Source: Vicinamibacteria bacterium (GTDB taxonomy: Bacteria; Acidobacteriota; Vicinamibacteria; Marinacidobacterales; Marinacidobacteraceae). Taken from it: 64,000 nt of DNA. The position numbers and the translations under genes are program-made. Positions within the stretch are counted from its first letter, which is position 1. Every line of letters starts with the position of its first letter. This document shows positions 1,114 through 10,364 of the stretch, piece after piece. The notes under the pieces were generated by a model that was not told the DNA's origin, ran no database searches, and was given only the letters and a program-made list of their open reading frames with translations. The DNA is taken from positions 1,097,226 through 1,161,225 of the forward strand of contig OZ241322.1 of NCBI GenBank assembly GCA_965199715.1, given 5' to 3'.

Positions 1114-1463
1114 GAGACGCCCTCCAGTCGGACGCGCACGACGCCCGACGAATGCAGGTGCGCCGACGACGGCGAGCGCAGTTTGCTGGCCGGTCAGGCT
1201 CGCCCGCAGGTCGTCGGCGCCGATGCGCGGGCGCCCGGGGCGTTCGGCCGGTCGAATCTGGCTCTCGTAATGGGCGGCCTCGCGACCGCCTTCGAATACC
1301 CGGTAGCGAACCTCCGCGTCACCGGTCGCGACGGCGATGATCGCGACGACGACTTCGGGCCTGGCGCGGAGCGTCGGGCATGGGAATCCGCGGGAGGTTA
1401 TCCGAGAGATCGGACATTTTCCGTCACGCTTTCCAAGAAACGGCTGGTAACCTCGCGCCCCGC

Positions 1464-4448
1464 ATGGACAGTCCGGTCAAGGAGCACCACGAGCTACAGC
1501 CGATCCTCCACTCCCCCTACGACGAGCCCGACCGGCACTGGAAGCTGGTCGATCACCAGACGACCGGGGACATCGTCGATCGCCGCCGGCCCGCCGAGGA
1601 GCGCGCCCCGACCCGGCGGCGCCGGCAGAAGGCGCTGCTCGGGGACGACCAGGTGGGCGAGACCGGAACGACGCCCAGCCCCATCGACAACTTGCGCGCG
1701 GAGGTTCGAGAGTGGCGCCGCGCGCAGTGGCCGGGGGTCACCGGAAACACCCGCCGGCTGCTCGAGTACTGGGCGCGTCCGCCGGGCGAAGGGGCGTACC
1801 ACAGCCCCTTCTTCGCCCAGCGCGAGGCCGTCGAGACGGTCGTGTACCTCACCGAGGCAGCCGACTCGAACCATGAGTGCGTGCGGCGCCTGAAGAAGCT
1901 CGGCGACGACTGGAGCGGGGGCCTCACCCGGCTCGCGATCCGCATGGCCACCGGCACCGGCAAGACCACGGTCATGGCGATGCTGATCGCCTGGTACGCG
2001 GTCAACCGCCGCGCGGAGCACCGGGCGGGACGCGGACTCGCGCGCAACGTCGGCATCCTCGTCGTCATCGCCCCCGGCCGGACGATCTCGGGCCAACTTC
2101 GCCGCCGGCTCGACCCGCGCCGCGGCGACAGCCTGTACGACTCGGGCCGCCTGCTGCCGCGGGATCTGCGGCCCCGGCTCAACAACCTCCGGGTGACCGT
2201 CCTGAACTTCGAGAAGCTCCGGCCCCGCCCGGCCGTGGGACTGCGCTCCATCGAGATCGAGGGCAAGGAGGCCATCGGCTGGGCGCGGGCCGAGGAGACG
2301 GCCGAAGTCCCCGAGACCTACGACCAGCTCTGGGACCGGCTGCTCGGCCGCGTGGACCCGCGGCACGGCGACCGGGTCGTGGTCCTGAACGACGAGGCCC
2401 ACCACTGCTGGGAGCGCAAGGCGGGCGCGAAGAAGCGGCGCGACGGCAGCGACCAGGGGGTCTGGATGGAGGCCATCCACGCGCTGGACGACCACCCGCG
2501 GTTCCGCGTCGCGCAGGCCATCGACCTGAGCGCCACGCCGTTCTTCATCGACCCGGCCAACACCCACGTTCCCCCGGACACGAGGATCCCGCGGCGGGAT
2601 CCGCTGGTTCCGTGGATCGTGAGCGAGTTCGCGCTCACCGAGTCCATGGAGGCCGGCCTCGTCACGATCCCCACCCCGCCGCGGAAGACCGACGCCGCGG
2701 AGCCGGACGCGCTCCAGAACCTGTACGAGGACAACGGCGGCCGCAGCCTCGACTCCGCCGCGAACCGGAAGAAGGTGCTGAACGCGGCGCGCCTGCTCTA
2801 CTCCGACTACGAGGCCACTTTCAGGGCGTGGAAGGAGCAGGGCGACCCCTCGATCGGGCGTCCGGTGCTCATCGTCATCGTGAACTCGAAGAAGAACGCG
2901 CGGGCGATGCTCGACATGCTGGGCGGCGCCCGCCGGGGGACCGAGGACGCCTGGGACATGCCGTCGGGGTTCGATCTGCTCTCCAACGTGCCCCACAACG
3001 GCGCGACCGAGCAGGAGTGCCTCGCGCGGCCCGCCCGGACCATCCTCGTGTACAGCAAGGGCCAGGGCGCGGTCGAGAAGAGCGCCGACAGCCGCTTCGA
3101 CCAGGGCGCGATCGGCGTCGAGGAGGTCAAGGACAGTCGCAAGCTGGAGGAGATCCTGCAGACGGTCGCCGAGCCGGGCCGCCCCGGCCAGCACGTGCGC
3201 TGCGTCGTGAGCATCGGCATGCTGACGGAGGGCTGGGACTGCCAGCGGGTCACCCACATCCTCGGCTACCGCAAGTTCGGCAGCCAGTTGCTGTGCGAGC
3301 AGACCACCGGGCGGGCGCTGCGGCGCCACGACTACGAGAACCGGATCGAGGTTCGCCGAAGCGACGACGGGAACGTGACCGAGCGGTTCGAGGCGACGTA
3401 CGCGACGGTGCTGGGCGTGCCGTTCAAGAACTTCGGCCCGCCGCCGGGGCCGACCCCCGGAGTCGTCAAGCCGCGCCGCACGGTCCGCGCGGTCGAGGAG
3501 CGCCGGATCAGCCATCGCATCCGGGTTCCCGACCTGTGCGACTACAAGCTCGTCCACGACACGCCGACGATCAAGCTGGATCCCGACCGGGTGGGCGCGG
3601 CCAAGCTGGCCTCGAGCGGCGACCGGATCGAGATCACCTGGGCGAAGTGCCGCGGGCCGTTCGGCAAGGAGCGCGTGCTCAAGGCGGCTCCCGCCGGACG
3701 GCCGGACGCGGGGGCGTGGAAGCTGGCCGCCGATCTCGCGACCTGGCTCACGAGGCGTCGGAGCGACGACCTGCGCAGCGGCCGCCTCTTCGCGTCCTGC
3801 CTCGTCGCCGTGAGGGCGTGGCTCGCCCACGGGAAGGTCGAATGCGAGCGGCCCGAGGCGCTTCTCCACGACGACGTCCGGCAGGAGGCGCTCCACCAGA
3901 TCCTGCACGCGGTCGTGGACGACCGCGACGCGCCGATCCAGAAGGTCGGAATCGCGACCGACCCCAAGGCGCTGCGCCGCTCGGCGGGCGACTGGGGGCC
4001 GTTCCAGACCACGCTGACCAACGTCGCGGAGGTCGGCAACTCGGAACTCGACCTCGCCGCCTGCCACAACCATTTCGAGACCAGGATCGTGCGAGCGCTC
4101 GACAAGCACCCCAGGGTCGCCGCGGTCGTGCGCAACCACGGCCCCGAGCGGTTCGAGATCCCATACCGCAGCGGCGGACGGTGGGCGCGGTACGTCCCTG
4201 ACTTCATCGTCCGCGCCGAGCCGATCGACGGGGTCACGCCGCACCTGATCGTCGAGGGCAAGGGGCCGCGGGACGGAAAGGCGGCGGACAAGGCGGCGTG
4301 GACGAGGGAGTGGTGGGTTCCCGCCGCGAATCACGCCGCCCGCGACGAGGGCGAGCCGGAGGCCCGATGGGGCTATCTCGAGATCCGATCGCTCGAACGT
4401 CTCGACCAGCAGATCGAGGCGGGCGTCCGGAGGACCGCAGCGTCATGA
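1464..4448 (+). CDS. res: Type III restriction enzyme Res subunit (SF2 helicase + PD-(D/E)xK endonuclease)
   Basis: Walker A MATGTGKTT, DEAH box VLNDEAHHCW, C-terminal nuclease motif VPDFIV...LIVEGKG; ~994 aa from internal ATG 1464 (track ORF starts at 1380 in same frame); stop overlaps mod start (ATGA). Confidence 0.8.
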   Translation: MDSPVKEHHELQPILHSPYDEPDRHWKLVDHQTTGDIVDRRRPAEERAPTRRRRQKALLGDDQVGETGTTPSPIDNLRAEVREWRRAQWPGVTGNTRRLLEYWARPPGEGAYHSPFFAQREAVETVVYLTEAADSNHECVRRLKKLGDDWSGGLTRLAIRMATGTGKTTVMAMLIAWYAVNRRAEHRAGRGLARNVGILVVIAPGRTISGQLRRRLDPRRGDSLYDSGRLLPRDLRPRLNNLRVTVLNFEKLRPRPAVGLRSIEIEGKEAIGWARAEETAEVPETYDQLWDRLLGRVDPRHGDRVVVLNDEAHHCWERKAGAKKRRDGSDQGVWMEAIHALDDHPRFRVAQAIDLSATPFFIDPANTHVPPDTRIPRRDPLVPWIVSEFALTESMEAGLVTIPTPPRKTDAAEPDALQNLYEDNGGRSLDSAANRKKVLNAARLLYSDYEATFRAWKEQGDPSIGRPVLIVIVNSKKNARAMLDMLGGARRGTEDAWDMPSGFDLLSNVPHNGATEQECLARPARTILVYSKGQGAVEKSADSRFDQGAIGVEEVKDSRKLEEILQTVAEPGRPGQHVRCVVSIGMLTEGWDCQRVTHILGYRKFGSQLLCEQTTGRALRRHDYENRIEVRRSDDGNVTERFEATYATVLGVPFKNFGPPPGPTPGVVKPRRTVRAVEERRISHRIRVPDLCDYKLVHDTPTIKLDPDRVGAAKLASSGDRIEITWAKCRGPFGKERVLKAAPAGRPDAGAWKLAADLATWLTRRRSDDLRSGRLFASCLVAVRAWLAHGKVECERPEALLHDDVRQEALHQILHAVVDDRDAPIQKVGIATDPKALRRSAGDWGPFQTTLTNVAEVGNSELDLAACHNHFETRIVRALDKHPRVAAVVRNHGPERFEIPYRSGGRWARYVPDFIVRAEPIDGVTPHLIVEGKGPRDGKAADKAAWTREWWVPAANHAARDEGEPEARWGYLEIRSLERLDQQIEAGVRRTAAS

Positions 4449-5299
4449 GCAAGACCCCGGACGCCTGGGAGCACGGCGGCAAGCGCCCGAACAACCCCAC
4501 CCAGGAAATCGTGGAGACCGCGAAGCCGCGGCGGAGCCGCCAGCACGCGAAGGACGTCCGGGCGCGCAGCGACGCCGAGCCCACGCTGCGCTGGAAGCGC
4601 TCCCGCGAGACGAAGACCGCGGCCGCGCCGATGCTCATGCGGGCCGAGCAGATCGACCCCGAGGCGTGGGTCACGACCCTGAAGCGGGTGCGCGAGCAGG
4701 GCGACCTGTTCGCCCCGTTCAACGCCTTCCGGGAGCCCGGATCGGCGACGCTCGACTGGTACCAGCACGCCGGCAACTGGTCGAACCGGCTCATCCACGC
4801 CGACGCCCGGCGGGCGATGGCGTCGCTGCTGGAGCACGAGCACGCCGCCGGCTCGGTGCAGATGTGCTTCTTCGATCCGCCCTACGGCATGGACTTCGAC
4901 GCAAGGTTCGGCAACGACACGATCCAGCGGCGGGCGTTCGTGGACACCTACGAGAAGGGCGTCCACTCGTATCTCGACGGAATCCGCGAGACCGCGATCC
5001 TCGCCCGGGAGCTGCTGACCGAATCGGGCAGCCTGTTCATGCAGATCGGCGACGTGAACGTCCACCGCTGCGCGATGGTGCTGGACGAGGTGTTCGGGCC
5101 GGAGAACCGGGTGACGACGATCACGATGGCGACGACCGGCGGCGGCAGCAGCACCAAGTCGATCGCGAAGGCGGGCGACTACCTCCTCTGGTACGCGAAG
5201 GACCGCGAGGAAATGGCCTTCCAGGCGCTCTACGAGGAGCAGGACGTCGAGGCGTGGTGCGATGGCCAGACTTTTGCGGGGGGGGGGGGATTTCCCTGA
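4445..5299 (+). CDS. mod: Type III DNA methyltransferase Mod, N-terminal reading frame (motif IV DPPY); terminated by frameshift at G12 tract
   Basis: NRLIHADARRAMASLL / FFDPPYG / ESGSLFMQIGD / MVLDEVFGPENRVTTI / DYLLWYAKD are collinear with EcoP15I-type Mod N-terminus; TGA at 5297 is 8 nt after G12. Confidence 0.8.
   Translation: MSKTPDAWEHGGKRPNNPTQEIVETAKPRRSRQHAKDVRARSDAEPTLRWKRSRETKTAAAPMLMRAEQIDPEAWVTTLKRVREQGDLFAPFNAFREPGSATLDWYQHAGNWSNRLIHADARRAMASLLEHEHAAGSVQMCFFDPPYGMDFDARFGNDTIQRRAFVDTYEKGVHSYLDGIRETAILARELLTESGSLFMQIGDVNVHRCAMVLDEVFGPENRVTTITMATTGGGSSTKSIAKAGDYLLWYAKDREEMAFQALYEEQDVEAWCDGQTFAGGGGFP
5278..5289 (+). repeat. G12 homopolymeric tract inside mod coding sequence (candidate slipped-strand phase-variation site)
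   Basis: cttttgcGGGGGGGGGGGGatttccc read directly; the two mod reading frames switch exactly here. Confidence 0.9.
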
Positions 5300-7022
5300 T
5301 GGAACGCGTCGAGCGCTGAGGCCCGAGGAGCGGCGAGACCCAAAGCGGAATCTCCCGGAAGGCACTGTCCTTTGGGCGATGCGAACGTTGTTGTCGCAGG
5401 GGCCTTCCAGCGGCGAACAGGGCCAACCGTTCACGTGGAACGGAATTCAGTTCGGCCCGCGAGGACTCGAAAAGGACCAGTGGCGTGTGGATCGCGCCGG
5501 CCTCGAGGCCCTCGCCACTGCAGATCGCTTCTGGACAGCGGTGAAGCCAGGGACCCAGACGGCGCGAGCCGCTCAACTCCAGCTACGGATTCTTAGGTCG
5601 GAAATGGCGGGCCGACGCCTCAACAACGTCTGGGCCCGGCAGATCGCCGCGACCGACAAGCGTTATCCCGTCCAGACGGGGGATCTCGCCATCCAGCGCT
5701 GCATGCTGATGACGACCAAGCCGGGCGACCTCGTGCTCGATCCGACCGGTGGCAGCGGCACGACGGCGGTGGTCGCCGAGGAGTGGGGCCGGCGCTGGAT
5801 CGCGATCGACAGTTCCCGGGAGAGCCTCGCCGTCGCCCGGGAGCGCGTGCTCGTGCGCGAGTACCCGGCGCATCTCCTGATCGGAAGCGCCGCCGGGTTC
5901 GCCCGGGAGAACGCGCTGCGCCACGCCGCGGGTCAGGAGCCGCTCGCCGGGCGGCCCCACGGCTCCCGCGATCCCGCCACCGGGATCGTCGTGGGCCGGA
6001 CGCCCTACGTGAGCGCCGCCACGCTCGCCTACCGGGACCGGCCCGACAAGGCCCGAACGCGCGACGTCACGTGGTTCGCGGACCGTCCCGACGGCGGCAA
6101 GAAGGGCGGCCGGATCGCGAGCCGGTTCACCGTCGAGACCGAGCACCTCGAGCAATACCGCAGCCCCGAGGAGCTTCTCAGCCCCCGCGAGCGGCGTCGG
6201 CAGGCGGACTGGAACGAGCGCGTCCTGCGCATGCTCGGCGACAAGGGCGTCGGCTCGAACGAGGGAACCCGCTGGACGCTCGAGGACATCGAGAACGTCG
6301 CCGACCGGCAACCCGAGAGCCGCCCCGGCGCGATCAGCCACCGCTGCCGTCTGATCGACCACGCCACCGGCGCGGCGAAGGACTGCGTCATCGCCATCTG
6401 GCCGCAGGACGCCAAGGTCGGCGTGGGCAACATCCAGCGCAACGTCCGCGAGGCGATCAGCCAGCACGTCGGCGGCGACGACCTCGCGCTGATCGTCGTG
6501 GGCGCGGAGATCGACGGCGGCTCGCACCAGTCGCTCGACGGCGGCCGGTGGCAAATCCCCGTCGCCCGCATCGAGGCGGGGGCCGAGCTGCATCTGAAGG
6601 AGACCCGGCGCAAGGCCGGCGACTCCGAGTCGGCGCTGCTTCTGGTCGCGGAGCCGGACGTGGAGGTCGAGGACGCCGGCGACGGGAAGCGCCGGGTCGC
6701 CGTCAAGGGCTGGCACCAGTTCAACCCGGTGACCGGCGAGTCGGACTTCTACGCCGCCGACCACATCCGCATGTGGCTGCTGGACACCGACTACAACGGG
6801 ACCGAATTCTGCGCCCGCCGCATCCACCTAAGCGCGAAGCTGCGCGCGAAGGAGAACCGGAAGGTGCTCCAGAGGGTCCTCGGGCGCAAGGGCGACCCGG
6901 ACGCGATCCGCGCGGTGTTCGGCTCCCGCAGCGAACCGTTCCCCGCGCCCGAGCAGGGCGAGATCGCCGTGCGCCTGATCGTCGGGAACGGGAGCGTCCT
7001 GAGCTGGCACGGCCCGGCTTAG
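5289..7022 (+). CDS. mod: Type III Mod continuation in +1 frame (AdoMet motif I and ~400-aa C-terminal extension)
   Basis: PGDLVLDPTGGSGTTAVV = motif I (FxGxG) of beta-class N6A/N4C MTase; frame is restored with mod N-part if G tract is 11 or 14 instead of 12. Confidence 0.75.
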   Translation, partial: DFPDGTRRALRPEERRDPKRNLPEGTVLWAMRTLLSQGPSSGEQGQPFTWNGIQFGPRGLEKDQWRVDRAGLEALATADRFWTAVKPGTQTARAAQLQLRILRSEMAGRRLNNVWARQIAATDKRYPVQTGDLAIQRCMLMTTKPGDLVLDPTGGSGTTAVVAEEWGRRWIAIDSSRESLAVARERVLVREYPAHLLIGSAAGFARENALRHAAGQEPLAGRPHGSRDPATGIVVGRTPYVSAATLAYRDRPDKARTRDVTWFADRPDGGKKGGRIASRFTVETEHLEQYRSPEELLSPRERRRQADWNERVLRMLGDKGVGSNEGTRWTLEDIENVADRQPESRPGAISHRCRLIDHATGAAKDCVIAIWPQDAKVGVGNIQRNVREAISQHVGGDDLALIVVGAEIDGGSHQSLDGGRWQIPVARIEAGAELHLKETRRKAGDSESALLLVAEPDVEVEDAGDGKRRVAVKGWHQFNPVTGESDFYAADHIRMWLLDTDYNGTEFCARRIHLSAKLRAKENRKVLQRVLGRKGDPDAIRAVFGSRSEPFPAPEQGEIAVRLIVGNGSVLSWHGPA

Positions 7023-7057
7023 GGCCGGGAGCCTCGCCGCCCTTCTTCACGCCTACA

Positions 7058-7063
7058 GTTTGA
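7058..7063 (+). promoter_or_regulatory. TTGACA -35-like hexamer upstream of three-gene operon (no convincing -10 found)
   Basis: exact TTGACA in intergenic 7023..7084, rare in this GC-rich background. Confidence 0.2.
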
Positions 7064-7084
7064 CAATCCGGGTAACCTTCCGGT

Positions 7085-7831
7085 GTGGCTGCGACGACGC
7101 GAAGCTTCCAAGGCGGCGCAGTGACGGACCCGGCCCGCCCCGTCGACGACAGCGGCTCTGGATTCGAACTCATTGAGCTGTCAGTGGTTTTCGCAACCAC
7201 GTCGAACAACCCGTCAATCATCAATCCGGATTTTCTCGCTCGCGCCGGAATCGTGGGCGAGGACTCGCCACTTAGCGGTGACCCCATCACTACTCCGGTG
7301 TTCTCACTGGTGAAGTACCAAACAGGCCTCGCCGTGCAAGCCGATCCTGAACGGGTCGTGTTGACGGAATCCCCGAATACTGGGAACCGGGTTGGCGCCC
7401 GGTGCGCACGGATGGCGTCGACATACGCGCAGGCGGTCCCGCACGTGGCGTACCGAGGAATCGGCGTCAATCCGAAGTTCTTTTTCCACCTCGTCCCGAC
7501 AGTTCAGGCGGAGATGGCCCGACTGCTGCATGAGCGCGGCGGTTGGCTGGAGTTCAAGGATTGCGAACCCACGGTGCAGCTCAAGGCGGTTTACGCACTC
7601 GACGCTCGCCAGATCACTGTCGATGCGAGCGCCGCCACAAGACGCTTGGGGCAAGGGGCCGAGCAGCGCGGTTTGCTAGTCCAGTGCAACGTGCACCGGG
7701 AGCTCACCGGTGACGCCGAGGAGCGGGCAGACGCCATGGCAACGATTCTTGAGCGGTGGGAGCGCGACATGAAGGACTGCCGAGAAGTGGCGCGGCGCTT
7801 CGCCGGTCGCCTTCAGCAGGAGGCCCAGTGA
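7085..7831 (+). CDS. hypothetical protein A (no recognisable domain), first gene of coupled A-B-C operon; alternative GTG start near 7121
   Basis: 248-aa ORF in lower-GC island; protein-like composition; stop overlaps B start (GTGA). Confidence 0.5.
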   Translation: MAATTRSFQGGAVTDPARPVDDSGSGFELIELSVVFATTSNNPSIINPDFLARAGIVGEDSPLSGDPITTPVFSLVKYQTGLAVQADPERVVLTESPNTGNRVGARCARMASTYAQAVPHVAYRGIGVNPKFFFHLVPTVQAEMARLLHERGGWLEFKDCEPTVQLKAVYALDARQITVDASAATRRLGQGAEQRGLLVQCNVHRELTGDAEERADAMATILERWERDMKDCREVARRFAGRLQQEAQ

Positions 7832-8601
7832 ACGAGACGCCGCTCCAGTCGCCAACGAAACGCCGACTGGTCGCAACCACGGCTCTCCTGACGGGAGATT
7901 TCGGCGAACGCGCTGACGCGACCAGGCCGCCAAGCTTCCCTGAGGAGGCCTTCTTGGCGGCGGAGGTGCGTGTCCCCTACGTCGTGCGTGCCGACCGAGT
8001 CCTGGTGCGGCGGGGTGGGCAGAATGCGACTTCGAGTATGCATGAGAATTTTTGGGCGGGGCTCGTTTCGTCCGGCAGTGCCGTCGGCGAGTTCGATAGC
8101 CCACTGCGCGAGTTCCACACCAACACCCTGAAGCCGGCGTTGAACGTTCTCACGCTTCTGGCACTCGTCAAGGCAACCCAAGCCGAGCACACCCGCGGCA
8201 TGGCCGGAATGCCGGACGCCACCGCCGCTCCGGACGCGAACGCGGACCTGCGAGCCGCCCTGATCGACCTTGATGAAGCGTCGGACGAGGCGCGAGAGGA
8301 AGGGTTCCCAGCGCTTTCCGAGAGGGCTCTAGGCGACGCCAGACGCCTGCTGAAGGACCTCTACCGTATGCACCCTTGCCGACTTGAGGTCTATCCGACG
8401 CCCGATGCCGAGATCGCTCTCGTGGCGCCCGGCGGGGACGATAGATCCGTGATGGTGTTGTGCGCTTCGGATGGCGGCGCTCTATGCACAGTCAACATTG
8501 ACGGGAGACTCCGATACGCACGGTACCCAAGCGCCGCCAGGCTCCCGGACGGCTTTGTCCGTGAAGGCATGCGGGACTTGGTCCGAGCGAGATCGCATTG
8601 A
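7828..8601 (+). CDS. hypothetical protein B (no recognisable domain)
   Basis: GTG start overlapping A stop; 257 aa; stop overlaps C start (TTGA); track ORF 7756..8601 is the same frame extended upstream. Confidence 0.5.
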   Translation: MNETPLQSPTKRRLVATTALLTGDFGERADATRPPSFPEEAFLAAEVRVPYVVRADRVLVRRGGQNATSSMHENFWAGLVSSGSAVGEFDSPLREFHTNTLKPALNVLTLLALVKATQAEHTRGMAGMPDATAAPDANADLRAALIDLDEASDEAREEGFPALSERALGDARRLLKDLYRMHPCRLEVYPTPDAEIALVAPGGDDRSVMVLCASDGGALCTVNIDGRLRYARYPSAARLPDGFVREGMRDLVRARSH

Positions 8602-9029
8602 CGCAGGCGCCGACGGCGATCCATGCCGCTGAGCAGCTTGGACGCGGGGTTTTCTCCGCCAAGGACGCGAAGCGGGCTGCCCGTTCCAAGATTCCACATC
8701 GGGTGTTCCTTACGAAGCCCGGGGTTGTACGCATTTCAGTAGACAGGCTGAATTTGGCTTCCGCGTCGGAAATCGTCACACTGGCCATCGACCGGGCCGA
8801 GAATCGACCGGGACGATTCCATGGCTGGGCCGTCTTGAGCGTGGACAAGGCGATCCGCAAGGGGCGACGCGTCGAGTCCACACCGGCAGAGGGAAATCCG
8901 CATCACGCCGACATCGTGCTTCCCGATCCCGCACGCGAGGATCGGGACGCTCAGATCGCACACGCGAGGGATATGGCTGACGCATCGAATTGGAAGCCGC
9001 GACCTGAAGCGACTTCAAGAGACTCGTGA
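8598..9029 (+). CDS. hypothetical protein C (143 aa, basic; no recognisable domain); TTG start
   Basis: only in-frame start is TTG overlapping B stop; no ATG in first 100 codons. Confidence 0.4.
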   Translation: MTQAPTAIHAAEQLGRGVFSAKDAKRAARSKIPHRVFLTKPGVVRISVDRLNLASASEIVTLAIDRAENRPGRFHGWAVLSVDKAIRKGRRVESTPAEGNPHHADIVLPDPAREDRDAQIAHARDMADASNWKPRPEATSRDS

Positions 9030-9130
9030 TTCACGCTCGCGAGTGATAGCGGCCACGGCTGTCCTCAAGCGGGCACCGGAAAAGCAGGACCGGGTTCTGC
9101 GCCCGTCGCAAGCGACGACCGACCACGGCG

Positions 9131-9370
9131 TCACGGCCCCTCGTCGCGCTTCTCTCGAAAGAACTCCCCGGCGGGCTGTCCGAGCGAGGGCATCGTGGCC
9201 CGGAAGCGCGCCAGATCTTCAACCGCCACGGGTTTCTTGGGGCGAGCTACGGCGGTGAGTCTCGCCACAGTCTTGCCCCGCCGCGTGATCAGAATGTCCT
9301 CACCGGCCTCAACGCGGTTCACGATCTCGCTGAGACGAGCCCTCGCGGCGGAAACGCTGATGGTCGTCAC
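9131..9370 (-). CDS. Phd/YefM-type (VapB-like) antitoxin paralog 3, no intact downstream toxin
   Basis: MTTISVSAARARLSEIVNRVEAGEDILITRRGK matches Phd/YefM N-terminal fold; 4-nt overlap with PIN C-terminal fragment. Confidence 0.7.
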   Translation of the reverse strand: MTTISVSAARARLSEIVNRVEAGEDILITRRGKTVARLTAVARPKKPVAVEDLARFRATMPSLGQPAGEFFREKRDEGP

Positions 9371-9826
9371 GAGAATGCGTGGCCCTGCCAGCTCATGGCG
9401 ATCGGGCCCGCCGTCGTCGGGAGTTCGAGCATTTCGCCGGCGATGAGCATCCCCTTGTCCAAGGTGTAGATGGCGGCGGCATCGTGATTTCGGGCGATCG
9501 CAAGGTGAAGCGCGTCACCCGCTCGCAGCCCGGTCTCGAAGTACCCGAGCCAACTCGCTGCTAACCGGAAATCGTCCTCCGTCGGGGTCAGTCGAACGAA
9601 GGAGTCCCGAACCATGCCTCGTAGCGGGCGCTTACGGCATGGGCCGCCGGGCCGTCAAGCTGGCCCATGCAACCTCGCGCGCAAACGTAGAGGCAACTTC
9701 AACCCCGGTCCAGTCGCTGACCGCAAGTCCCCCCACGCACGGAGCCGCGAAGAACTCAGCTATCGCGAAGCTGTGGGCTTCGTCCAAGAACAGCGGAACC
9801 AGGAAACTCGTGTCGAAGTAGCGCAT
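9367..9826 (-). pseudogene. vapC: vapC (PIN-domain toxin) disrupted by frameshift into two ORFs (9632..9826 N-part, 9367..9615 C-part)
   Basis: N-part MRYFDTSFLVPLFLDE and C-part GDALHLAIA...IYTLDKG contain all four PIN acidic positions but lie in different frames. Confidence 0.6.
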
Positions 9827-9844
9827 TCGACAGCCCGCGGGACC

Positions 9845-10084
9845 TCACCTTCCCTCGTCGCGCATCTCGCGGATGAGCTCCGCCGACGGTCGGCGCAGGC
9901 GTGGCATCGAAGTCCGAAAGCGCTCCAGTTCCTTGAGCGGCAGCGGTTTCTTGGGACGGAGCACGGCGGTGAGCCGGATTGGCTGCTTGCCCCGGCGAGT
10001 GATGACGACATCCTGCGCGTCCGCAAGCTTGTCCAAGACTTCGTCGAGGCGCACCTTCGCCCGATTGAGACTGATCGTGAACAT
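9845..10084 (-). CDS. Phd/YefM-type antitoxin paralog 2 (cognate of the disrupted vapC)
   Basis: MFTISLNRAKVRLDEVLDKLADAQDVVITRRGK; 18 nt upstream of vapC N-part. Confidence 0.7.
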   Translation of the reverse strand: MFTISLNRAKVRLDEVLDKLADAQDVVITRRGKQPIRLTAVLRPKKPLPLKELERFRTSMPRLRRPSAELIREMRDEGR

Positions 10085-10110
10085 CGGAACCTACCCCCAA
10101 GGGCGAGGAG

Positions 10111-10120
10111 TCTAGCGAGG
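10111..10120 (-). promoter_or_regulatory. second copy of operator-like motif upstream of antitoxin paralog 2
   Basis: TCTAGCGAGG 27-36 nt upstream of start at 10084. Confidence 0.3.
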
Positions 10121-10130
10121 ACGGGGGCGC

Positions 10131-10364
10131 TCAGCTCTCCTCGTCGGACACTTCCGGCTCGCGCTCCCCCGACGGCCGGCGTCGCATCGAGGCCCGGAGC
10201 TTGGCCAGTTCCTCGAGCGGCGGCGGCTCCTTGGGACCGAGCACCGCCTTCACGTGCACGGACTCCTTGCCGCGGCGGGTGATGACCACGTCCTCCCCCT
10301 CGGCGAGCTTGTCGAGAATCTCCTCAGGGCGCGACTTCGCCTTCGTGTACGTGATCGTGAACAT
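10131..10364 (-). CDS. Phd/YefM-type antitoxin paralog 1 (directly followed by paralog 2, no toxin between)
   Basis: MFTITYTKAKSRPEEILDKLAEGEDVVITRRGK; GGGAGG RBS; ~75% nt identity to paralog 2. Confidence 0.7.
   Translation of the reverse strand: MFTITYTKAKSRPEEILDKLAEGEDVVITRRGKESVHVKAVLGPKEPPPLEELAKLRASMRRRPSGEREPEVSDEES

Follow-up and report, generated by a model that had tools for sequence, protein, structure and literature searches.

The 64,000-nt stretch analysed here (the window; Vicinamibacteria bacterium, contig OZ241322.1, positions 1,097,226 to 1,161,225 of the forward strand) carries three small genes, A, B and C, that together form what we call the ABC cassette (Table 1). All three are co-directional, and a direct reading of the sequence shows that neighbouring open reading frames (ORFs) share 4 nt at their stop and start codons. 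This confirms the first-pass annotation, which had described three tightly coupled ORFs of 248, 257 and 143 aa with the last one starting on TTG. For gene A, however, the GTG at 7121 is most likely the start codon rather than the one at 7085, because the database protein P0001 and the N-termini of homologues agree on it and an AAGG lies 8–11 nt upstream. The decrease in guanine-plus-cytosine (GC) content that had been reported for this region is real, although it leads from ~0.71–0.75 to 0.626–0.666 between ~7.0 and 10.3 kb (500-nt windows) and not to 0.58–0.60. GC at third codon positions (GC3) amounts to 0.73, 0.73 and 0.67 in A, B and C versus 0.89–0.94 in the restriction-modification (R-M) genes upstream, while GC at second positions (GC2, ~0.49–0.53) is lower than GC1 and GC3 in all three genes, which is the pattern of coding DNA. 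Overall, the operon has a composition that looks foreign. The TTGACA hexamer that had been placed at 7058 in front of the operon is also present, two nucleotides further downstream, but a sigma-70 promoter scan of positions 6800–9400 returned 0 two-hexamer sites and the hexamer has no −10 partner, so the idea that it serves as a promoter was dropped. Neither an inverted repeat nor an operator-like element was found upstream of the cassette, and the window as a whole gave no hits to Rfam and no tRNA genes.

Profile hidden Markov models (HMMs) of the three families recognise the window copies with E values of 2e-87 for A, 8e-66 for B and 8e-56 for C, and homologues of the cassette were found at more than 100 loci. 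Together with the codon-position pattern, this conservation in relatives identifies A, B and C as real genes. Relatives were counted in a collection of 5.8 billion proteins, which holds 45 for A, more than 154 for B and 73 for C; Pfam domains are absent from the relatives of A and C, and among the listed relatives of B only P0165 carries one (RelB). Searches of A, B and C against Pfam, NCBIfam, PADLOC and PHROGs gave no match, and profile searches of their alignments against PDB sequences returned nothing meaningful.

What kind of system the three genes form can be read from the way in which they occur together. A scan with B as query, restricted to one genome per species, yielded 79 loci, and HMM classification of the 80 loci including the window gave 26 with the complete ABC arrangement, 17 with BC, 11–14 in which a truncated or frameshifted C lies beside B, 20 with B alone and 2–3 with A and B. 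A metagenome scan with C as query retrieved 31 loci, 28 of which have B immediately upstream; the other three end at a contig border or in a truncation, so B precedes C in 28 of 28 assessable loci and a solo C occurs in none of them. As C is never found without B, whereas B is often orphaned or accompanied by a decaying C, we regard C as toxin-like and B as antitoxin-like: a toxin that never stands alone next to common decayed toxins and orphan antitoxins is the pattern of type II toxin-antitoxin (TA) systems. The layout is that of a type II system as well, with two small, adjacent, co-directional and coupled genes of which the antitoxin gene comes first. The identity matrices of A, B and C correlate with each other (Mantel r 0.73–0.78, p ≤ 0.0005) at mean pairwise identities of 42 % for A, 60 % for the C-terminal domain of B and 55 % for C; the three genes have evolved in concert and travel as one unit.

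Table 1. Features of the ABC cassette and its surroundings. Positions refer to the window (position 1 is its first nucleotide) unless a locus label (L) is given.
Feature	Position	Strand	Remarks
Gene A	7121..7831	+	236 aa from GTG 7121; longest ORF from GTG, 7085-7831, 248 aa
Gene B	7828-8601	+	257 aa; GTGA overlap with the stop codon of A
Gene B, N-terminal extension	7828..8232	+	residues 1-135
Gene B, conserved C-terminal domain	8233..8601	+	residues 136-257; proposed toxin-neutralising antitoxin domain
Gene C	8598..9029	+	143 aa; TTG start; TTGA overlap with the stop codon of B
Gene C, conserved residues	R16 8643-8645, S47 8736-8738, H103 8904-8906, D105 8910-8912	+	also D49, R50, N100
5' intergenic region	7023..7120	+	TTGACA at 7060-7065
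Restriction subunit, helicase type	1380-4448	+	1022 aa; NCBIfam NF046055
Type III-like DNA methyltransferase, two ORFs	4298-5299, 5262-7022	+	split by a 12-G run at 5278-5289
Phd/YefM antitoxin genes	9131-9370, 9845-10084, 10131-10364	-	part of the TA array 9131-10364
PIN toxin, C-terminal fragment	9367-9615	-	Pfam PIN positions 67-114
PIN toxin, N-terminal piece	9632-9826	-	in another frame
Homologous locus	L001		type I R-M, PIN/Phd
Homologous locus	L002		SNF2/NOV_C helicase, PIN/Phd, DruA
Homologous locus	L003		housekeeping surroundings
Homologous locus	L004		IS3-family genes on either side
Homologous locus	L117		type I R-M; PSK and MNT/HepT TA pairs
Homologous locus	L118		NOV_C helicase, AAA_15/21 ATPase, ApeA, DUF1156 methylase
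A-like gene with giant gene	L120, L122-L124, L127, L128		Leptolyngbya, Anabaena, Calothrix, Acaryochloris, Gloeothece, Nostoc PCC 7120
Picosynechococcus A-like trio	L129 3986-5736 = NZ_CP016487.1 4254-6004		between hsdR and hsdS (type I R-M), beside HepT/MNT and VapBC

The first-pass annotation had found no motif in any of the three proteins. This holds for library searches, but the structure model of C exhibits the split β-sheet core of the ADP-ribosyltransferase (ART) fold, which would make it a member of the ART superfamily, together with conserved R, S and H-x-D residues. In a structural search with this model, 33 of the 40 top matches were classed as ART-fold proteins, and the neighbours include Tpt1/DarT-like proteins, CopC/OspC3, RES toxins, pertussis- and cholera-like toxins, the SidE mART, Scabin and diphtheria toxin; a Foldseek run of the model against the PDB gave no match at E ≤ 0.001. 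Among 123 divergent representatives of the family, S47 and H103 are invariant (123/123), followed by N100 (121), R16 (120), R50 (116), D49 (113), R90 (106), H122 (105), R70 (101) and an acidic residue, D or E, at position 105 (102), and a Pfam scan of the same 123 proteins produced one chance match and otherwise none. In ARTs of the R-S-E type the conserved elements run in the order R / S-T-S / E-x-E, and we take those of C to follow the same order with an unusual H-x-D in place of E-x-E. In the model, strand 1 bears R16, strand 2 the stretch S47-V-D-R and strand 5 the stretch N-P-x-H103-A-D105; this order and placement, read without residue-level superposition, would fit the ART triad, yet the usual glutamate is not conserved. 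On these grounds C is a candidate minimal ART-fold toxin. Exhaustive HMMER searches (E ≤ 1e-3) extend its family to 1045 clusters at 50 % identity, of which the best 150 are stand-alone proteins of ~107–185 aa. Gene C is not called in the source assembly (window 8598-9029; locus L116 2851-3381), and the intact ORFs of L001 and L005 were left uncalled as well. Gene calling systematically misses short toxin genes whose starts are overlapping or not ATG, and the family is therefore under-represented in protein databases.

A fold with such neighbours could also belong to a Tpt1/KptA-like, NAD+-dependent enzyme that acts on RNA ends or phosphates in housekeeping or repair, with B as its regulatory partner. 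We consider this highly unlikely, since neither a Pfam match to the Tpt1/KptA RNA 2'-phosphotransferases nor their two-domain build is found in C, which consists of one domain, and its TA-type genetics would ill suit a housekeeping enzyme: the distribution is patchy, driven by horizontal gene transfer and accompanied by variable flanks, C strictly depends on an upstream B and is often pseudogenised while B is kept, and the cassettes sit among TA, R-M and insertion sequence (IS) genes. Even less probable, to the point of being nearly negligible, is an inter-bacterial polymorphic toxin in which C would be an exported effector and B the immunity protein, comparable to Tse2-Tsi2 of the Pseudomonas aeruginosa type VI secretion system (T6SS). 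At their stand-alone size, the best 150 C proteins could not accommodate an N-terminal domain for trafficking or of the Rhs or PAAR type. The would-be immunity gene B precedes and overlaps C, which is the layout of type II TA systems, and no secretion-system genes, including those of a T6SS, occur in the contexts read. C has no detectable sequence relationship to Tse2, and sequence searches likewise relate B in no way to Tsi2. Tsi2 is an all-helical dimer.

The conservation of B is confined to its C-terminal ~120 residues, which are found in every locus of the family and are 55–70 % identical across phyla, whereas the N-terminus varies. Although window B itself contains no Pfam domain, its relative P0165 joins the B C-terminal domain to a RelB ribbon-helix-helix (RHH) domain (Pfam E 3e-14), the only such case with a recognisable RelB RHH. 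It is encoded in locus L005 (5517-7060) between a preceding PIN toxin gene and a following, uncalled C, where it may act as a single antitoxin serving two toxins. We also considered that B might be a promiscuous antitoxin with an alternative toxin downstream in the B-only loci; this was rejected, as the downstream ORFs are heterogeneous and show no recurrent partner. Long N-termini of B in loci lacking A are mostly artefacts of choosing the first start codon in high-GC ORFs, and the only recognisable ones among them are RelB (P0165) and a truncated HepT (L077).

Gene A is an accessory, optional component of the cassette, and its presence is tied to the N-terminal extension of B. This extension measures at least 77 aa in 28 of 28 A-containing loci (median ~100 aa) and often no more than 15 aa where A is absent; conversely, wherever a full-length A turned up among the B-query loci and the seven A-family contexts checked, it was paired with a long B. 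In 19 of the 28 A-containing loci, A and B overlap by 4 nt as they do in the window. The ABC and BC forms are interleaved in the similarity clusters of the B domain, so A and the extension must have been gained or lost together more than once. With a mean pairwise identity of 14 % versus 62 % for the C-terminal domain, the extension is hypervariable, and it is richer in S, T, P, Q and N (32 % versus 20 %). The idea that it is disordered was dropped, given that its overall composition is no more disorder-promoting than that of the folded C-terminal domain; only hypervariability is claimed here. According to its structure model, A adopts a TBP-like saddle with a double β-α-β3-α arrangement and is neither similar nor homologous to SecB.

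Taken together, we interpret positions 7121–9029 (+ strand) of the window as a self-contained, horizontally mobile, tripartite cassette of the TA type with C as toxin, B as antitoxin and A as accessory protein, a reading to which we assign a probability of roughly 60 %. Free C would draw on NAD+ and arrest growth by modifying or depleting an essential target. Given that several arginines are conserved and that structural neighbours are Tpt1/DarT-like, one may reasonably guess at a substrate that bears a phosphate or is a nucleic acid. The conserved C-terminal domain of B presumably binds and neutralises C, and A would act through the N-terminal extension on the stability or availability of B, similar to the SecB-like chaperone and the ChAD segment of toxin-antitoxin-chaperone systems. 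Once B is lost or sequestered, be it upon loss of the cassette, under stress or possibly during phage infection, C would be released.

The cassette is spread over hosts from at least 10 phyla at 50–70 % identity of the B domain (loci L006–L115), among them Vicinamibacterales, Bryobacterales, Binatia, Nitrospirales, Latescibacterota, Dehalococcoidia, Caldilineaceae, Rhodothermales, Spirochaetia, Thermodesulfobacteriota, Entotheonella, Porisulfidus as well as Alpha- and Gammaproteobacteria. Of the 31 metagenome matches obtained with C, 20 stem from LXNI, LXNJ and MKWU, which are Mediterranean sponge metagenomes (Horn et al. 2016, PMC5099237), and judging from lineage and isolate names most of the genome loci probably have a sponge or coral origin, too. 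This distribution, to which database bias may contribute, points to extensive cross-phylum transfer within sponge microbiomes. In the collections searched, the cassette is not evidently carried by phages or plasmids: scanning IMG/VR viral contigs with C and B revealed no relatives, and tblastn gave no match for C in PLSDB plasmids and INPHARED phages and none for the B C-terminal domain in PLSDB plasmids. Some genomes hold more than one copy. In L010 (569-1225, a stop-interrupted B with a C fragment) and L048 (1276-1647, a solo B), the module recurs within a few kb of its main copy, and two loci per metagenome-assembled genome were seen in OY761822.1, OZ252099.1 and the CBDHFM01 assembly.

In the window, the cassette is flanked by type III-like R-M genes upstream and Phd/PIN genes downstream, exactly as the first-pass annotation had located it, between an R-M system and a TA array. 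The helicase-type restriction subunit matches the NCBIfam model NF046055 ('BPTD_3080 family restriction endonuclease') with an E value of 2.5e-171 and a score of 572 bits; as the curated cutoff is 800, the subunit ranks as divergent within that family. Both ORFs of the split methyltransferase gene mod match PADLOC MTase_III (PDLC03632); the run of 12 G that separates them either renders the gene phase-variable, as the first-pass annotation had assumed, or is a homopolymer error of the long-read assembly. The TA array downstream is degraded and consists of orphaned Phd/YefM antitoxin genes and a lone, split PIN toxin gene. Orphan antitoxins next to a dead toxin are the same pattern that the B/C family displays.

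From such flanks the cassette had been proposed as a candidate undescribed defence module in a typical defence-island context. It is module-like, and its three families are absent from the libraries searched, but such a context is not the rule among its homologues. Five of the eight gene-annotated contexts, i.e. the window and seven homologous loci, adjoin R-M or defence genes, and the surroundings are suggestive in the window, L001, L002, L117, L118 and L129. This is not general: 149 filtered ORFs within 1.8 kb of ~21 ABC loci are mostly housekeeping genes, and R-M-type neighbours occur in ~4–5 of these loci. With its mixed and mostly housekeeping flanks the cassette behaves as an autonomous insertion, like a TA module, and not as an obligate member of defence islands.

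The decay of the neighbouring genes raises the question whether the window copy could be a decaying or silent remnant without function in its current genome. The split PIN gene, the orphaned Phd genes and the interrupted mod gene would fit such a fate, as would the TTG start, the weak ribosome-binding site and the uncalled status of C and the truncation of C in 11–14 of 80 related loci. B moreover departs from its family at two positions (8509–8517, residues 228–230), where L replaces H228 and Y replaces R230, both of which are kept in at least 90 % of B homologues as part of a basic H-R-R-A-R-Y stretch. On the other hand, all three ORFs are full length with an HMM coverage of 97–98 % for A and C, every invariant or near-invariant residue of the C family is intact, and the overlaps that would couple translation are preserved, which makes a remnant distinctly unlikely in our view.

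The two substitutions in B and the TTG start of C nevertheless count against an active TA-type cassette in the window, and they are joined by further difficulties. With 60 % identity, B is more conserved than the putative toxin C (55 %), which is unusual for a simple inhibitor. Likewise, it is hard to see how an extension with 14 % identity might be specifically recognised by the fairly conserved A (42 %). Alignment of A places many conserved polar residues on its β-strands, and A could thus be an enzyme or ligand binder. In that case A might be the functional antidote that reverses or intercepts the product of C in a type IV-like manner, comparable to the DarG macrodomain, and B would be a regulator or adaptor. 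We judge this unlikely. Several of the conserved polar strand residues are absent from the distant homologues of A found in cyanobacteria.

These distant homologues, 23 in number and all located on cyanobacterial plasmids, were detected by tblastn at 23–27 % identity, and hhalign relates A to them with probabilities of 99.8–99.9 %. In six of nine plasmid contexts a giant gene of 14–35 kb, with the annotation Ig, CARDB, Calx-beta or S8/S53 protein, is found downstream of the A-like gene. It comes next in four of them; in Calothrix a second A-like paralogue intervenes, and in Nostoc PCC 7120 an RTX-repeat gene plus an IS. The N-termini of three translated giant proteins are rich in S, T, N and Q. 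The recurrent pairing may hint at the role of the A fold, and the fact that A-family genes precede a partner with a distinctive N-terminal region provides circumstantial support for an action of A on the B extension. On plasmid unnamed4 of Picosynechococcus sp. PCC 8807 two ORFs of 197 and 146 aa come after an A homologue (hhalign 99.9 %). These ORFs were rejected as homologues of B and C (hhalign below 1 %, hmmsearch ~3 bits). By eye, the small ORFs show the motif order YR ... TVED ... DH..P ... W and an S/T-rich N-terminus, like B and C, and the trio, carried by a culturable host, could be an extremely distant form of the ABC cassette.

Among the known systems closest to the cassette is CmdTAC, which acts as an abortive-type defence against phages. 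Its third protein detects a protein of the phage, and sensing of the capsid thereby frees an mRNA ADP-ribosyltransferase (Vassallo et al. 2024, PMC11618068; Mets et al. 2024, bioRxiv 10.1101/2024.02.24.581848). As in CmdTAC and other toxin-antitoxin-chaperone (TAC) systems, three genes encode an ART toxin, here a candidate one, an antitoxin and one further protein, which goes together with an additional antitoxin segment (28 of 28 loci here), and two- and three-gene forms coexist with a modular third component. Unlike in TAC, A is no SecB-like chaperone, and the extra segment is N-terminal and hypervariable where the ChAD is C-terminal, so the two are analogous and not the same feature. In PADLOC, B and C have no match at E ≤ 1 and A has a chance-level one to SngB (E 0.044), albeit PADLOC-DB 2.0 may lack a model for CmdTAC (PD-T4-9). 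DarT-DarG differs in that C has no Pfam match, including DarT (DUF4433), and is ~140 aa long versus ~210 for DarT, that B contains no macrodomain and that the antitoxin gene comes first in the ABC order. The RES-Xre systems (ParT-ParS, MbcT-MbcA, NatT) are set apart by the lack of a RES Pfam match and of an Xre/DUF2384-type antitoxin domain, and C features R16, S47 and H103-x-D105 rather than R-E-S. By the features compared, the cassette belongs to none of TAC, DarTG and RES-Xre; the kind of system, a TA module, is known, while its three protein families are absent from the libraries searched.

An anti-phage or abortive-infection role is plausible for the ABC cassette when CmdTAC and DarTG are taken as analogues. 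We would nonetheless put an anti-phage function somewhat below even odds; otherwise the cassette would serve as an addiction or stabilisation module. A more far-reaching idea, which we regard as doubtful, is that the cassette is a non-SecB analogue of TAC phage defence. The A saddle proteins would then be a class of partner-specific chaperones or sensors that recognise the N-terminus of the next-encoded protein, be it the B extension or the giant surface proteins of cyanobacteria, and would gate minimal ART toxins with an R/S/H-x-D site, and the cassette would be a shared immune module spread horizontally over at least 10 phyla, many of its carriers probably living in sponge microbiomes.

The ART toxins of TA systems known so far, DarT, ParT, MbcT and CmdT, each opened a new target or mode of phage defence, and C would add a candidate that is among the smallest ART-fold proteins and bears H-x-D instead of the catalytic E-x-E. 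Its family is sizeable, absent from Pfam, NCBIfam and PADLOC and frequently overlooked in gene calling. The strict link between A and the extension of B may represent a second, independent case of the third-partner addiction logic of SecB-type TAC systems, built on an unrelated fold, and the plasmid of Picosynechococcus PCC 8807 offers a culturable organism in which A could be studied. Sponge metagenomes have long been noted to be enriched in defence and TA genes (PMC5099237, PMC5649159), and to this enrichment the ABC cassette adds a concrete and traceable element.

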